Assembly: GCF_013122565.1 (NCBI RefSeq)
Contig: NZ_CP053258.1
Reading direction: 5' to 3' (one strand)
Origin: Escherichia coli
Lineage (GTDB): Bacteria; Pseudomonadota; Gammaproteobacteria; Enterobacterales; Enterobacteriaceae
DNA length: 64,000 bases
Shown here: piece by piece, positions 4,183-57,110 of the stretch
Layout of the letters: the number at the start of each line of letters is the position of its first letter
How positions within the stretch are numbered: the first letter of the stretch is position 1
Program-made: the position numbers and the translations under genes
Notes under the pieces: generated by a model
What the model saw: only the letters and a program-made list of their open reading frames with translations
What the model was told of the DNA's origin: nothing
Databases searched by the model: none

Positions 4183-6207
<2,025 letters not shown>

Positions 6208-6208
6208 G

Positions 6209-6427
6209 ATGGAAAAAGAGCAGCTGATTGAAATAGCCAATACGATAATGCCGTTTGGCAAATACAAAGGGCGTCGCTTAATCGACCTGCCGGAGGAGTA
6301 TCTGCTGTGGTTTGCCCGCAAAGATGAGTTCCCGGCAGGGAAGCTCGGTGAGCTAATGCAAATCACGCTGCTGATTAAAACCGAGGGGCTGACGCAACTG
6401 GTCCAGCCCCTGAAGCGTCCGCTTTAA
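6209..6427 (+). CDS. ypeB: DUF3820-family small protein YpeB
   Basis: ORF 6110-6427 overlaps the ligA 3' end; start placed at MEKEQLIEIANTIMPFGKYKGRRL one base after the ligA stop. Confidence 0.8.
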   Translation: MEKEQLIEIANTIMPFGKYKGRRLIDLPEEYLLWFARKDEFPAGKLGELMQITLLIKTEGLTQLVQPLKRPL

Positions 6428-7494: not shown

Positions 7495-8050
7495 TTTGTG
7501 CGCGAGGAGTGTGAGTGAGTTGCTCGCTCGCTTCGACTGGTTGGCAGAGCGGGGGAGGATATCCCGGATGAGACAAATAAGACGTTCGACAAGAGAATCA
7601 GGTGACTACAGAAAAAATCACAGGATGTTATTACTGCTGATGTTCATGTCGGTTTTCGCGTTATCAGAACTGGTTTTAGAACTGCTATTTAATCGATAAT
7701 GCCATTCTGCAGGAAAGCTTTACCTACTTTATTATTTGCGGTGTGGTAAAACCTGGTCACCAGAGGCAGGTTTAATACCAGACGCTGTCTTTTATCAGAT
7801 ATCCCATGTAAATAATAAATGCAATGAATATTAATTCATTATGTATTTATTTTGTGATTGTTTGGTGTTACTAGTTTGTTGGACAAATAACAACTCTAAC
7901 TAATACATAAACCTTGCATAGTGACAGAGTATCGATCTGAATGTTTTCAACATTGATATCAAATTGCAATTGATATCCGTGGTAAAAAGTATTGGTAAAT
8001 TTGATGAATTTCCGGATATTTAAAGGGGCGGCTCAAAGACGAAGGGGAAG

Positions 8051-19350: not shown

Positions 19351-19382
19351 AAAAAGCCGGGGAATTATCCCCGGCTTTTTTA
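19351..19382. terminator. Bidirectional terminator between pdeA and nupC
   Basis: aaaaaagccgggg-aatta-ccccggctttttt, perfect hairpin with A and T tracts on both sides. Confidence 0.7.
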
Positions 19383-20594: not shown

Positions 20595-20860
20595 ATTTGC
20601 TCCAAATATGAGGCAGGTTAAATTTCCGTGCACATTCTATGTAACATGGTTAAGGAAAACGAGATCTGACACACACTATAATGACGTCCTGTGACAAGCT
20701 TCAAAAATAGTGATCTGCCATACATTTCTGCTATGTTGTGTATGGAAGCTGAAAGTTATGTAAATGTGCTAACATTAAACATAACCATAACATTCGAGTC
20801 ATCAATCTTTTCGTAGTCATAATCCTGGTCTATCAGAGAAATCACCACAACCCATTTAAA

Positions 20861-20880
20861 TGAATTTGATAATCATTCTC
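20861..20880 (+). promoter_or_regulatory. Fur box in the mntH promoter
   Basis: tgaatttgataatcattctc resembles the Fur consensus GATAATGATAATCATTATC. Confidence 0.6.
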
Positions 20881-20895
20881 GTTTGGCATAGCATG

Positions 20896-20917
20896 AAACA
20901 TAGCAAAGGCTATGTTT
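20896..20917 (+). promoter_or_regulatory. MntR operator in the mntH promoter
   Basis: Palindrome aaacatagc-aaag-gctatgttt immediately upstream of the mntH start. Confidence 0.65.
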
Positions 20918-20920
20918 TAG

Positions 20921-22168
<1,248 letters not shown>

Positions 22169-35341: not shown

Positions 35342-36580
35342 ATGGCTGACACTCGCCCTGAACGTCGCTTTACGCGCATTGATCGTCTCCCGCCCTACGT
35401 TTTTAACATTACCGCTGAACTGAAAATGGCTGCGCGTCGGCGCGGCGAAGATATTATCGATTTCAGTATGGGTAACCCGGACGGTGCCACTCCACCGCAT
35501 ATCGTCGAAAAATTATGTACGGTGGCCCAGCGCCCGGACACGCATGGTTACTCCACGTCACGCGGCATTCCGCGGTTACGTCGCGCCATTTCTCGCTGGT
35601 ATCAGGATCGATACGACGTTGAGATCGACCCGGAATCAGAAGCCATCGTCACCATTGGTTCGAAAGAGGGGCTGGCACACCTGATGCTGGCGACGCTGGA
35701 TCATGGTGACACGGTGCTGGTGCCGAATCCAAGCTACCCCATTCATATTTACGGCGCGGTGATTGCCGGGGCTCAGGTACGCTCAGTGCCGCTGGTGGAA
35801 GGTGTCGATTTCTTCAACGAACTGGAACGCGCCATTCGTGAAAGTTATCCGAAACCGAAGATGATGATCCTCGGCTTCCCGTCGAACCCCACCGCGCAAT
35901 GCGTGGAGCTGGAGTTCTTCGAAAAGGTTGTGGCGCTGGCGAAACGCTACGATGTGCTGGTGGTCCATGACCTGGCCTATGCAGACATCGTCTACGATGG
36001 CTGGAAAGCGCCGTCAATCATGCAGGTGCCAGGTGCACGCGATGTGGCGGTCGAGTTCTTTACGCTGTCAAAAAGCTACAACATGGCGGGCTGGCGTATC
36101 GGCTTTATGGTTGGCAACAAAACGCTGGTCAGTGCGCTGGCACGTATTAAAAGCTATCACGATTACGGCACCTTTACGCCGTTGCAGGTGGCAGCGATTG
36201 CGGCGCTGGAGGGCGATCAACAGTGCGTGCGCGATATTGCCGAACAGTACAAACGCCGCCGTGATGTACTGGTAAAAGGGCTGCATGAAGCGGGCTGGAT
36301 GGTCGAAATGCCGAAGGCTTCGATGTATGTCTGGGCGAAAATCCCTGAACCTTATGCTGCCATGGGCTCGCTGGAATTTGCCAAAAAGCTGCTTAACGAA
36401 GCGAAGGTCTGTGTCTCTCCGGGGATTGGCTTTGGCGACTACGGCGACACGCATGTTCGCTTTGCACTGATTGAAAACCGCGACCGTATTCGTCAGGCGA
36501 TTCGTGGGATTAAAGCGATGTTCCGTGCCGATGGTTTACTACCCGCCAGCACCAAACATATTCACGAAAACGCGGAATAA
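35342..36580 (+). CDS. alaC: Glutamate-pyruvate aminotransferase (PLP-dependent)
   Basis: 412-aa [31 protein letters not shown]..., class I aminotransferase with [10 protein letters not shown] Lys motif. Confidence 0.93.
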
Positions 36581-36600
36581 ACACCGACCTCAAAAATGCA

Positions 36601-36628
36601 AACAGGAGCCTGATGGCTCCTGTTTTTC
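36601..36628 (+). terminator. Rho-independent terminator after alaC
   Basis: aacaggagcc-tgat-ggctcctgtt hairpin followed by tttt. Confidence 0.7.
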
Positions 36629-36644
36629 ATTGCACAGTTTGCTT

Positions 36645-36716
36645 TTAGATCATCAGGGCAAAAGTACCGGCCCAAACGATGACCATAAAAGAAATGCCCA
36701 TAAAGAAATATTTCAC
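36645..36716 (-). CDS. ypdK: Small membrane protein YpdK (23 aa)
   Basis: Below the ORF-track cutoff; reverse complement reads GTG AAA TAT TTC ... = MKYFFMGISFMVIVWAGTFALMI*. Confidence 0.7.
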   Translation of the reverse strand: MKYFFMGISFMVIVWAGTFALMI

Positions 36717-37071
36717 TTTACATCTCTCCGCGTAATTACTGTTACGCCTGAATGACTTCATTACACCTGATACAGTGAGTTGACACCGGGCAAAACGACC
36801 TTAAAAGTCCTGTATTTTACCGTGGGCATCACCCCAGAATTCTGAGCTAAACTGCTCCAGACGGCGCTAATGTACGCCTAAAATTGAAACGAGACAATAG
36901 GCATTTTCTTATTTACTTTTAGTAACTTACAGGTGTCTCATATCGGCGACAGTTTAATTTCTGACGGTAATAATTAGAGATTCAGCGAAGGAAAAAACCT
37001 TAAGAAAAAAGCCATAAAAACCATGGGGTTATTATGGCTGATTTGAGGAGGGAAAGAGTCAGAGCAGTTTG

Positions 37072-37992
37072 TTAAATGTATAGCGACGATTCTCCCACCG
37101 GGCGCGTTTTAAAGCGACGGTGGATCCAGAGGTACTGCTCCGGTGCGCGCATGATCTCTTTTTCGATAATCTTGTTCATATAGGCAGCGGCTTGATTTTC
37201 ATCTGCCGGGTAGCCTTCCATCTCTGGGGTGATGAACAAACGATATCCGCTGTAATCCGCTTTTCTTACCATCGTTACGGTCAACATGGCTGCGCCAGAG
37301 AGACGGGAAAGGACATACGTACCATTGGTTGTGGCGACATTTTCCACCGCAAAGAACGGTGCGAAGGAGCTGCCTTTACGACCATAATCCTGATCGGGAG
37401 CAAACCATACCGCTTCACCTTTCTTCAGTGCACTGACAATGCCGCGCAGATTATTTCTGCCGATCATCGCTTTGTTAGAACGCATGCGACCACGGGTCTG
37501 CACCCATTCCATCAGCTGATTATTATGTGGACGATAGGTAGCCATCATTGGTTGGCACAGTCCCATCACGCGACCGCCCAGTTCCAGCGACATAAAATGG
37601 ACGCCGACAACCATTACGCCGCGATTTTGCATTTGTGCGCGTTTAAGGTTATCCAACCCTTCAACATCAAACCATTTACGTACGCGACTGTCGGGCCAGA
37701 ACCACGCCATGCCGGTTTCTACCAGCGCCATGCCGAGTGAACGAAAGTTTTCGGCAATCATCTTCTCGCGTTCTTCCGCAGAATGCTGCGGGAAACAAAG
37801 TTCCAGGTTTTTACGGGCGATAGATTCACGACGTTTCAGGAATGGTCGCGCCATTGCGCCAATACGCGTGCCGAGAAAGCAGAGAACAGGGTATGGAAGT
37901 TGTACCCAAAGCCAGAGTACACCAAGCCCAAACCATGTGAGCCAGTAGCGAGGATGTAGAAACTCGCGGGAAAATTTGCAATGTGGAAACAT
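37072..37992 (-). CDS. lpxP: Lipid A biosynthesis palmitoleoyltransferase (cold-induced late acyltransferase)
   Basis: ORF 37072-38058; start placed at MFPHCKFSREFLHPRYW; LpxL/LpxM/LpxP family. Confidence 0.9.
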   Translation of the reverse strand: MFPHCKFSREFLHPRYWLTWFGLGVLWLWVQLPYPVLCFLGTRIGAMARPFLKRRESIARKNLELCFPQHSAEEREKMIAENFRSLGMALVETGMAWFWPDSRVRKWFDVEGLDNLKRAQMQNRGVMVVGVHFMSLELGGRVMGLCQPMMATYRPHNNQLMEWVQTRGRMRSNKAMIGRNNLRGIVSALKKGEAVWFAPDQDYGRKGSSFAPFFAVENVATTNGTYVLSRLSGAAMLTVTMVRKADYSGYRLFITPEMEGYPADENQAAAYMNKIIEKEIMRAPEQYLWIHRRFKTRPVGESSLYI

Positions 37993-49265: not shown

Positions 49266-49880
49266 TTAGCCGATTTTGTTACGTTGCGCGAATGTGTAAA
49301 GATCCATCAGTGATTTACATTCTAATTTTTCCATCAGGCGACTTTTATACGTGCTGACAGTTTTGTTGCTGATGAACATTTTTTCCGCAATGTCATTATT
49401 ATCCTTGCCATCAAGAATATACCTCATGACACTAATTTCTTGTTTCGATAAGGAGTCGAGTTTTTGCTGGTCGGACGTTAAACTTCCAACAAACCGGTTG
49501 AGAGAGAAGGGGAAATAGCAGTAGCCATTTTTTGCAGCTTCAATAGCCGCAATGATATTGTTCATGCCTTCTTTTTTACTCACGAATCCATTAGCGCCAG
49601 CATCAGCACAATGTTTCCCGTAAAAATGGTCATTTTTAGCGGAGACAATAATAATAATTCCGCTATATTGGCGCTTCCTCAGCGTTTCTAACACCTGGAT
49701 ACCGTTAACTCCGGGGATATCGACATCAATGATGACGATATCAGGCTTAAGTGTTTCCACCCGCTGAACGGCGCTTCCCCCTTCAGTCAACTCCGCTAAG
49801 ATTTCAATATCGTTTTTGATCAATAGATTACGAATTGCTGCGATAGCAAGAGGATGGTCATCAATAATTATTGCGTTCAT
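49266..49880 (-). CDS. evgA: Response regulator EvgA (NarL/FixJ family)
   Basis: 204-aa ORF MNAIIIDDHPLAIAAIRNLL... with LuxR-type HTH. Confidence 0.96.
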   Translation of the reverse strand: MNAIIIDDHPLAIAAIRNLLIKNDIEILAELTEGGSAVQRVETLKPDIVIIDVDIPGVNGIQVLETLRKRQYSGIIIIVSAKNDHFYGKHCADAGANGFVSKKEGMNNIIAAIEAAKNGYCYFPFSLNRFVGSLTSDQQKLDSLSKQEISVMRYILDGKDNNDIAEKMFISNKTVSTYKSRLMEKLECKSLMDLYTFAQRNKIG

Positions 49881-50104
49881 AGATTATTCCCTTTGCAATG
49901 AAGCATCTCCCTTCTCCCTGTAGTAATACAGACATAAGGCGTCATCTCATTTTCTCAATAAAAATAAGAAAATCCGAGCTTCCTTTAAGATAATTCGAAA
50001 AGTATACCATATAAATAGTCGGCATAAATGAAATGTCAACAATAAAATTAGGGATTATACCGATGATTTATAGTTTCAAGTTAGCACTATAAGTCTTCTC
50101 ACTA

Positions 50105-56941: not shown

Positions 56942-57035
56942 TGAATAAAACTACGAGTTCCGGGTGTGCCTTATTCGGCCTGCTAGTTCGAATTTAATTT
57001 ACGGTTTTTTGTGGTTTTAGGGATAAATACAAGGA

Positions 57036-57110
57036 TGGTGTCCCCTGCAGGAATCGAACCTGCAATTAGCCCTTAGGAGGGGCTCGTTATATCCATTTAA
57101 CTAAGAGGAC
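57036..57110 (-). tRNA. argW: tRNA-Arg (anticodon CCU)
   Basis: Reverse complement reads GTCCTCTTAGTTAAATGGATATAACGAGCCCCTCCTAAGGGCTAATTGCAGGTTCGATTCCTGCAGGGGACACCA. Confidence 0.93.

Follow-up and report, generated by a model that had tools for sequence, protein, structure and literature searches.

The segment 36645-36716, read on the minus strand of the 64,000-nucleotide stretch of Escherichia coli DNA analyzed here (the window), is the gene ypdK. Both ypdK and ypeB, the second small gene to which the first-pass annotation had drawn attention, are real, conserved, previously annotated and published, and as a finding this is correct but ordinary. Their confirmation is best regarded as a quality check, and it does not overturn current understanding. 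The one item at ypdK for which we could not find a description in the literature is the combination of a conserved promoter, a structured leader and an invariant GUG start codon. The account as a whole, which takes in the two gene calls together with the ypdK transcription unit, the role of its leader, the mode of action of the peptide and the translational coupling of ypeB that we infer, is in our judgment very likely to be right. From a practical perspective, a cut-off of 60 codons conceals ypdK, ypeD and evgL in this 64-kb window, and ypeB is masked by a longer overlapping open reading frame (ORF); all four are curated genes (Table 1).

Table 1. Coordinates of the genes, signals and RNA elements considered in this work
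Feature	Position	Strand	Description
ypdK CDS	36645..36716	minus	GTG start, 23 codons plus TAA; one hydrophobic segment of transmembrane length
Shine-Dalgarno core GGAG of ypdK	36726..36729	minus	9 nt 5' of the ypdK GTG
Predicted leader hairpin	36730..36747	minus	6 bp (GCGUAA-CAGUAA-UUACGC); abuts the Shine-Dalgarno; from RNAalifold and pair counts
Predicted long-range leader helix	36777..36835	minus	GGGGUGAUGC.C pairs with G.GUGUCAACUC; encloses a variable insert
Promoter-like element of ypdK	36869..36897	minus	TTGTCT (36897-36892), 17-nt spacer, TACATT (36874-36869), GC-rich AGCGCC; read against the consensus
Predicted intrinsic terminator of ypdK	36590..36625	minus	11-bp stem, then GCAUUUUUGA; between convergent alaC and ypdK
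ypeB CDS	6209-6427	plus	72 aa, PF12843/DUF3820; ATG one base after the ligA TGA (6205-6207)
ypeD	20860-20949	plus	29 aa; overlaps the first 20 nt of mntH (mntH ORF start 20930)
evgL	49877-49906	minus	9 aa; stop overlaps the evgA start (ATGA)

Identity and published expression of ypdK

Translation of the reverse complement of 36645-36716 gives V(M)KYFFMGISFMVIVWAGTFALMI*, and the resulting 23-residue peptide, MKYFFMGISFMVIVWAGTFALMI, is hydrophobic nearly throughout; the coding strand reads GTG AAA TAT TTC TTT ATG GGC ... ATC TAA. The 72-nt sequence matches b4680 of E. coli K-12 MG1655 without a single difference, and the flanking DNA is ~98% identical to that of K-12. NCBIfam NF033437, an equivalog model named "YpdK" that is 23 positions long and carries a curated threshold of 30 bits, gives the peptide 57.5 bits (E 9.4e-16), with residues 1-23 aligned to model positions 1-23. 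Of 5426 complete E. coli genomes, 5422 contain the 601-nt region that carries the gene. RefSeq labels the ORF "ypdK: membrane protein YpdK," between alaC and lpxP, in the E. coli records that match. In the window these neighbors lie at 35342-36580 (alaC, plus strand) and 37072-37992 (lpxP, minus strand), and the ypdK stop at 36645 faces the alaC stop at 36580 in a tail-to-tail arrangement. This is the position of the gene in K-12, its 3' end facing the 3' end of alaC, and a comparison of the two loci gives the same coding sequence, the same neighbors (convergent alaC, lpxP upstream) and the same GTG start, with no difference in the gene itself. The first-pass annotation had called a 23-aa gene with a GTG start between alaC and lpxP, and both the translation and the RefSeq annotation bear this out; that it escapes a 60-aa ORF cutoff, as was also stated, follows from an ORF of 23 codons.

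The published record on expression is consistent with these assignments. According to PMC3009722, ypdK belongs to a set of 18 small ORFs from Hemm et al., and its product is a putative peptide with a single transmembrane segment. In PMC12350097, Supplementary Table 1 sets the transposon-fusion (TIS) results of that study beside published Ribo-RET and mass-spectrometry sets for E. coli BW25113 or a derivative in LB; its "Ribo-ret only" class includes ypdK and its "Proteomics only" class ypeB. In this comparison ypdK is not among the mass-spectrometry or transposon-fusion detections. An absence of ribosome footprints had been named beforehand as the observation that would speak against both genes, and with ypdK on the Ribo-RET list and ypeB on the mass-spectrometry list of the same table (PMC12350097), neither gene call is refuted. 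All of this expression evidence pertains to BW25113 or K-12 rather than to the strain of the window. Protein-level support for YpdK rests on a 2008 tagging study by Hemm et al., in which the protein is reported to have been detected by SPA tag. The supplements of three other papers contain nothing on ypdK.

A conserved coding sequence rather than a chance ORF

By size alone the ypdK ORF lies within chance, and it is conservation that, to judge from the comparison of orthologs below, lifts it above chance. There are 524 ORFs of 8-59 codons in the ~10.3 kb of the window without long-ORF cover, and the Shine-Dalgarno duplex energy of ypdK places it 30th among them. The ribosome-binding-site strength of evgL places that gene 13th, and a ranking of intergenic small ORFs based on the ribosome-binding site alone was rejected, as it does not single out the known genes. 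Given so many small ORFs in so little uncovered DNA, and an ordinary Shine-Dalgarno score, one could read ypdK as an untranslated open frame that arose by chance in an intergenic spacer.

The comparative evidence speaks against this. A scan for orthologs anchored on AlaC, with one genome per species, yielded 80 Enterobacterales loci, drawn from Escherichia, Citrobacter, Salmonella, Enterobacter, Kosakonia, Kluyvera, Buttiauxella, Cedecea, Pantoea, Erwinia, Mixta, Serratia and other genera. In 77 of the 80, a YpdK-like ORF of 23-24 codons was found on the strand opposite alaC, with the two 3' ends facing each other as in K-12. The ORF lies ~130 nt or less from the end of the AlaC match in nearly all loci; the remainder are within ~400 nt, with one exception at ~1.7 kb. 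Three to four AlaC loci gave no YpdK ORF match, and for one of these the contig ends there. There is a single ypdK copy per locus, with fixed synteny, across three Enterobacterales families.

Among 69 distinct ypdK orthologs there is not one stop codon. Entropy at codon positions 1, 2 and 3 is 0.59, 0.19 and 1.18, respectively, and seven residues (Y3, M6, G7, S9, G17, T18 and F19) are invariant, with third codon positions free to vary in all of them save M6, which has a single codon. Synonymous changes make up 46.9% of pairwise codon differences in frame, versus 8.1% and 7.7% in the two shifted frames. Because the frame stays open, variation is concentrated in third positions and the synonymous excess is confined to the reading frame, we conclude that ypdK is translated and that, on this comparative evidence, its amino acid sequence is under purifying selection across the Enterobacterales. 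Together with the match to a curated NCBIfam equivalog above its cut-off and the presence of ypdK in a list of Ribo-RET detections, this effectively refutes the notion of a chance ORF, to which we give next to no credence. In short, comparative genomics finds ypdK cleanly, and ribosome-binding-site scoring alone does not.

Start codon and ribosome-binding site

The start codon of ypdK is GTG in all 77 loci. A GGAG, GAGG or AGGA core lies 7-10 nt 5' of it in every one of the 76 loci scored, and the mean energy of the Shine-Dalgarno duplex with the anti-Shine-Dalgarno sequence over these loci is -6.6 kcal/mol, which is also the value computed for the window. A longer product was weighed against the 23-residue form. 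An ATG at 36761, 45 nt 5' of the GTG, lies in the same frame, and no stop separates the two in the window, in K-12 or in any other E. coli locus examined; a 38-residue form beginning MKSFRRNSNYAERCKVKYFF would result from it. This ATG is confined to Escherichia among the loci examined, and most loci outside that genus have an intervening in-frame stop or no equivalent start. Moreover, the putative extension overlies the Shine-Dalgarno and a covarying hairpin, both of which evolve as RNA, with length changes that are not multiples of three, and the NCBIfam model has only 23 positions, matched end to end. We therefore consider it extremely improbable that the 38-residue form is the true product, and we retain the GTG start.

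Two other candidates in this region were also discarded. A conserved ATG 7 nt 5' of the GTG was rejected as a start: it is 2 nt from the GGAG and out of frame, it is absent in Erwiniaceae, it forms an ATG-TAA start-stop in Escherichia, and it pairs with an upstream UCAU in several genera (e.g., Salmonella). A thermometer-like element, in which the Shine-Dalgarno pairs with codons 3-6 in the minimum-energy fold of the E. coli sequence, was not adopted because the pairing sequence is lost where codons 4-5 differ, as in Erwiniaceae.

A probable ypdK transcription unit

The gene upstream of ypdK varies by genus. In Escherichia, Citrobacter, Salmonella and Enterobacter, and only there, it is lpxP; other genera have histidine ammonia-lyase-like, beta-lactamase-like and EmrA-like genes, transporters and others in its place, as named from their translations. 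The tail-to-tail arrangement with alaC is constant whatever lies upstream. With a changing upstream neighbor and a constant alaC, ypdK must therefore carry its own expression signals.

Candidates for such signals are present on both sides. Of the 76 loci scanned, 72 have the motif GTAnATT[A/T] 5' of the GTG (36875-36867 in the window); in nearly all it takes the form GTAnATTAG, usually followed by CGCC, and it lies 49-193 nt 5' of the GTG, at ~120-170 nt in most loci. A second conserved element, cTTGtc in Enterobacteriaceae or TTTATT in Erwiniaceae, lies exactly 17 nt 5' of the TAnATT core, and an A/T-rich tract is found 5' of this element. A stricter promoter scan, in which 9 of 12 matches were required, did not report the ypdK promoter. 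From the consensus assignment, transcription is predicted to start at ~36862-36864, 146-148 nt 5' of the GTG. According to supplementary file 3 of PMC3009722, a K-12 tiling-array transcript begins 148 nt 5' of ypdK and extends into the ORF, and the predicted start agrees with this published edge; the same supplement reports that the transcript is up by 1.06 log2 (2-fold) after UV. On the other side, a hairpin with a T-run after it, at 36625-36600, forms the putative terminator, and its stem-loop appears again in a fold of 271 nt.

Our reading is that ypdK forms a transcription unit of its own. A sigma-70-type promoter (TTGTCT, 17 nt, TACATT and a GC-rich discriminator) would start a monocistronic ypdK mRNA of ~260 nt, and this mRNA would end at a hairpin terminator shared with alaC.

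We also weighed whether a conserved TCTATACT/TATAAT box ~55 nt 5' of the GTG might be a second promoter, and set it aside because it has no -35 element at a workable spacing, is degenerate in Escherichia and is deleted in some Citrobacter. When the promoter region was read by eye against the sigma-E, LexA and CpxR consensus sequences, only a loose, putative GTTAC-N5-GTAAA was noted, centered ~57 nt 5' of the predicted transcription start.

A predicted structured leader

The region between the predicted transcription start and the GTG has conserved secondary structure in silico. For the hairpin abutting the Shine-Dalgarno, 84.6% of cells in an alignment of 51 Enterobacteriaceae sequences are paired versus 73.8% after shuffling, and 39 cells are changed on both sides versus 14.2, in a shuffle control that takes no account of phylogeny; controls with the helix slid along the alignment are 8-58% paired. 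This hairpin was recovered in a second alignment (A3). The long-range helix comprises 10 pairs, with 93.7% of cells paired and 5 of the 10 pairs changed on both sides (RNAalifold, 32 sequences), and when both leader helices are counted jointly the slid controls are 31-49% paired. A hairpin proximal to the 5' end is seen in most loci, with quite different sequences, and in the consensus fold for Erwiniaceae a 5'-proximal UCCU is predicted to pair with the Shine-Dalgarno AGGA. These covariation counts support the leader structure well, short of proof. Rfam 15, applied to 36550-37120, gave best scores of 17-24 bits versus gathering scores of 41-70, all for unrelated families, and over the whole 64-kb window it reported only tRNAs. 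The leader element is conserved across at least three Enterobacterales families and has no Rfam family.

Our scheme has a leader of ~146 nt with three elements, namely the 5'-proximal hairpin, the long-range helix and the hairpin touching the Shine-Dalgarno, which together with the weak, invariant GUG would probably set or regulate the yield of YpdK. That the yield is constrained or regulated is suggested by the combination of a folded leader with a weak GUG that is never replaced. The stronger proposal, that the ~146-nt leader is a previously undescribed cis-regulatory RNA that gates YpdK translation together with the invariant GUG, is offered as a tentative possibility, and we think it rather less probable than not. 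If true, the leader would be a modest new member among the structured 5' leaders of small-protein mRNAs.

The same features could be accommodated by a different model, in which the ~260-nt transcript is a dual-function RNA that both encodes YpdK and pairs with other RNAs through a single-stranded segment, CUCUAUACUCAG, conserved in most genera. The transcript would be of small-RNA size with its own promoter and terminator, and the segment is a conserved unpaired stretch between two covarying helices. In Escherichia itself, however, the segment is degenerate (CACUGUAUCAGG), and in some Citrobacter it is partly deleted; moreover, its conservation would be explained just as well by a site for protein binding or for ribosome standby. 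We regard the dual-function model as unlikely and keep to a leader acting on YpdK yield as the preferred reading.

The YpdK peptide

To our knowledge, YpdK belongs, with many other small membrane proteins of E. coli, to those without a known function. Its GRAVY is 1.73, and 19-residue windows average 1.45-2.12, with the three such windows over residues 3-23 scoring 1.86-2.12. This hydropathy fits one transmembrane segment, in line with the "single TM" of the first-pass annotation, and membrane location is predicted accordingly from the sequence. When angles are computed for a helix, residues 3, 6, 7, 17 and 18 fall together on one face, as does the nearly invariant L21, and the hydrophobic positions 10 and 14, which are conservatively substituted, lie on that same face. 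Such a conserved face resembles a helix-helix contact surface. A search of the PDB with the YpdK sequence returned no match.

By analogy with AcrZ, KdpF, CydX, MgtS and PmrR, we propose that inner-membrane insertion of YpdK would leave Lys2 facing the cytoplasm and that the peptide would pack its conserved face (Y3, M6, G7, G17, T18 and the near-invariant L21) against a larger membrane protein. We put the likelihood of this mode of action, insertion with Lys2 cytoplasmic and binding to a larger inner-membrane protein, somewhat below an even chance.

A competing explanation is that YpdK is a type I toxin-like membrane peptide, on the model of tisB, dinQ, shoB and ibs, with a folded leader that silences the mRNA until it is relieved by processing or through an RNA antitoxin. 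The peptide is small and very hydrophobic, and its leader is long and structured, with the UCCU-AGGA pairing over the Shine-Dalgarno predicted in Erwiniaceae. The UV response of the ypdK transcript (2-fold up) could be brought in as well, in that tisB and dinQ are induced by DNA damage. No LexA box was seen, however, when the sequence was read by eye. Type I toxins are typically patchy in distribution, multicopy and fast-evolving, and ypdK shows none of this: it is a single-copy gene at one chromosomal position, strongly conserved across three Enterobacterales families. Moreover, neither an antisense nor a neighboring small RNA turned up, and Rfam has no match in 36550-37120; a scan for an antisense promoter at the ypdK locus gave no convincing candidate, and a literature search found no small RNA between ddg (lpxP) and yfdZ (alaC). 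We consider the toxin explanation quite improbable and continue to favor a peptide that binds a larger membrane protein. In any case, the conservation, residue by residue, of one face of the helix from Escherichia through to Pantoea and Serratia, the constant GUG, and the predicted promoter and structured leader of its own provide handles for studying YpdK.

ypeB

Against Pfam PF12843 (DUF3820, QSregVF_b), which has a gathering threshold of 22 bits, YpeB scores 100.7 bits, with residues 3-68 aligned to model positions 2-66 of 66, and matching E. coli records in RefSeq, where the gene lies between ligA and yfeH, label it "ypeB: DUF3820 family protein." The order ligA-ypeB-yfeH is found in K-12 and in Kosakonia too, and as a member of the PF12843 family the window YpeB occupies the same place after ligA as in these, with no difference. 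The ypeB stop overlaps the 3' end of the convergent yfeH by 4 nt. The family is broad, with 894 representatives at E <= 0.001 in a set of 1.84 billion proteins; most of the representatives stand alone and are 70-110 residues long.

The gene is nested in frame in a 105-codon ORF with a TTG start (6110-6427) that overlaps the 3' end of ligA (4192-6207), and the question is which start is used. The longer frame is open, and some database entries carry versions of 100-105 aa. As an extension, however, it overlaps ligA out of frame by 98 nt. Moreover, most homologs of YpeB are 70-72 aa in length, and in an alignment of 52 family members the conserved part sets in near residue 3 of the 72-aa form and the N-terminal extensions cannot be aligned, which supports the 72-aa start; the Pfam match likewise covers residues 3-68 of the short form. 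The likelihood that the 105-residue ORF is the true YpeB is very small, and the description of ypeB (6209-6427) in the first-pass annotation, as a gene hidden inside a longer spurious ORF overlapping ligA, holds for the 72-aa form. We think that ypeB is probably translated by coupling to ligA, with which the abutment of the two genes, found also in Kosakonia, is consistent.

The AlphaFold model of YpeB has a pLDDT of 95.5 and four helices; it had no significant neighbor among solved structures, and a PDB search with the YpeB sequence gave only an insignificant match. Residues 10-42 show a weak, sub-threshold likeness to the C-terminal part of DnaQ-like "epsilon" models and to ExoX-like_C. This likeness and the adjacency of ligA hint at a role for YpeB in DNA metabolism, and we would not lean on it.

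Other small genes in the window

The suggestion that further genes of less than 60 aa might exist in this window proved correct, in that ypeD (29 aa) and evgL (9 aa) were found, both taken from the curated K-12 annotation of the collinear region. YpeD scores 84.6 bits over 29 of 29 positions against PF23644 (YpeD-like; gathering threshold, 27 bits), and evgL is identical to K-12 b4781 at 30 of 30 nt. Both were discovered by ribosome profiling, ypeD as described in bioRxiv 10.1101/2021.07.02.450978 and evgL in bioRxiv 10.1101/511675, the latter also being detected by SPA tag. The two are intact at their K-12 positions, ypeD before mntH and evgL before evgA, and each overlaps the start of the downstream gene; following the published descriptions (10.1101/511675, 10.1101/2021.07.02.450978), they may be leader ORFs rather than free-standing proteins. 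The window lacks the CPS-53 prophage and, with it, three small genes that this prophage carries in K-12, yodE, ypdJ and torI. A scan of eight high-ranking small-ORF candidates of at least 20 aa gave no match to a Pfam or NCBIfam family.

Comparison with known small membrane proteins

A number of E. coli small proteins bind larger membrane proteins, as in the pairs AcrZ-AcrB, KdpF-KdpABC, CydX-CydAB, MgtS-MgtA and PmrR-LpxT. Sequence similarity of YpdK to these is not expected and membership in a family with any of them is not claimed; unlike KdpF and CydX, it shares no operon with a candidate partner. The likeness to AcrZ, KdpF, CydX, MgtS and PmrR lies in the build of the peptide: like them, YpdK is shorter than 50 aa, consists of a single hydrophobic helix with an N-terminal basic residue, and has conserved small or polar residues within that helix.

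Upstream region and translation start of ypdK

Conservation across loci anchored on AlaC, one genome per species, outlines a putative control region in front of ypdK, the 23-codon gene between alaC and lpxP. Of the 76 loci scanned, 72 share a conserved promoter-like motif, GTAnATT[A/T]. The leader of about 146 nt that follows contains covarying helices and matches no family in Rfam. The predicted transcription start is consistent with the edge of a published K-12 tiling-array transcript, which begins 148 nt upstream of ypdK (PMC3009722, supplement).

Upstream of the -35 element lies a further sequence conserved in Enterobacteriaceae, GTTAC-N5-GTAAA (36905-36925, minus strand), its centre lying some 57 nt before the predicted start. 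It bears a loose likeness to the CpxR box consensus. Farther upstream, several genera carry an inverted repeat, GTGTCG...CGACAC.

The start codon of ypdK is GTG, and never ATG, in 77 loci. The Escherichia spacer that separates this GTG from the Shine-Dalgarno sequence contains an ATG-TAA start-stop pair; the spacer ATG is also conserved in other Enterobacteriaceae, but there it begins an out-of-frame reading frame. In the predicted folds of several genera, Salmonella for example, this ATG is paired with an upstream UCAU.

The AlaC-anchored scan found no YpdK-like ORF at 4 AlaC-bearing loci (L071, L076, L079 and L080), which belong, in that order, to Erwinia endophytica, Candidatus Symbiopectobacterium, a record titled Pseudomonas resinovorans, and Lonsdalea. 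The AlaC on the Pseudomonas-labelled contig is of the Enterobacterales type (91% identity), and this record may reflect mislabelling or contamination.

Features of the ypdK start region and an additional small ORF
Feature	Coordinates	Strand	Basis or scope
43-codon ORF, unannotated, MRQIRRSTRESGDYRKNHRMLLLLMFMSVFALSELVLELLFNR	7568-7699	+	small-ORF ranking
ypdK upstream region: promoter-like motif and leader	36717-36900	-	conservation across loci
ATG-TAA start-stop pair, Shine-Dalgarno-to-GTG spacer of ypdK	36718-36723	-	Escherichia

Other small ORFs and differences from K-12

YpeB (P0123; gene at 6209-6427, plus strand) is predicted with high confidence to form a four-helix domain, and comparison of the predicted fold with the PDB returned no significant neighbour. 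One library protein of 630 residues carries nine tandem copies of the domain.

The 43-codon ORF, absent from the annotation of strain LHM10-1, has the strongest Shine-Dalgarno match among all intergenic small ORFs (-11.3 kcal/mol). Its product, hydrophobic in the C-terminal half, has no match in Pfam or NCBIfam, and an extra nucleoside permease gene lies downstream. Flanked by yfeH and the tRNA-Lys/Val cluster, the segment 7486-13614 carries a variant nucleoside locus (nucleoside permease, nucleoside 2-deoxyribosyltransferase, xapA, xapB and a LysR regulator). By megablast this segment has no close match to the yfeR-yfeN-xapABR segment of K-12, and of the 5426 complete genomes of E. coli only 15 contain 80% or more of it.

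Two K-12 elements are absent at 19360-19371 and about 57035-57050. K-12 has an IS186 copy adjoining nupC and the 10-kb CPS-53 prophage adjoining tRNA-Arg (argW), whereas the window has neither and therefore also lacks yodE, ypdJ and torI, which are small genes of K-12.
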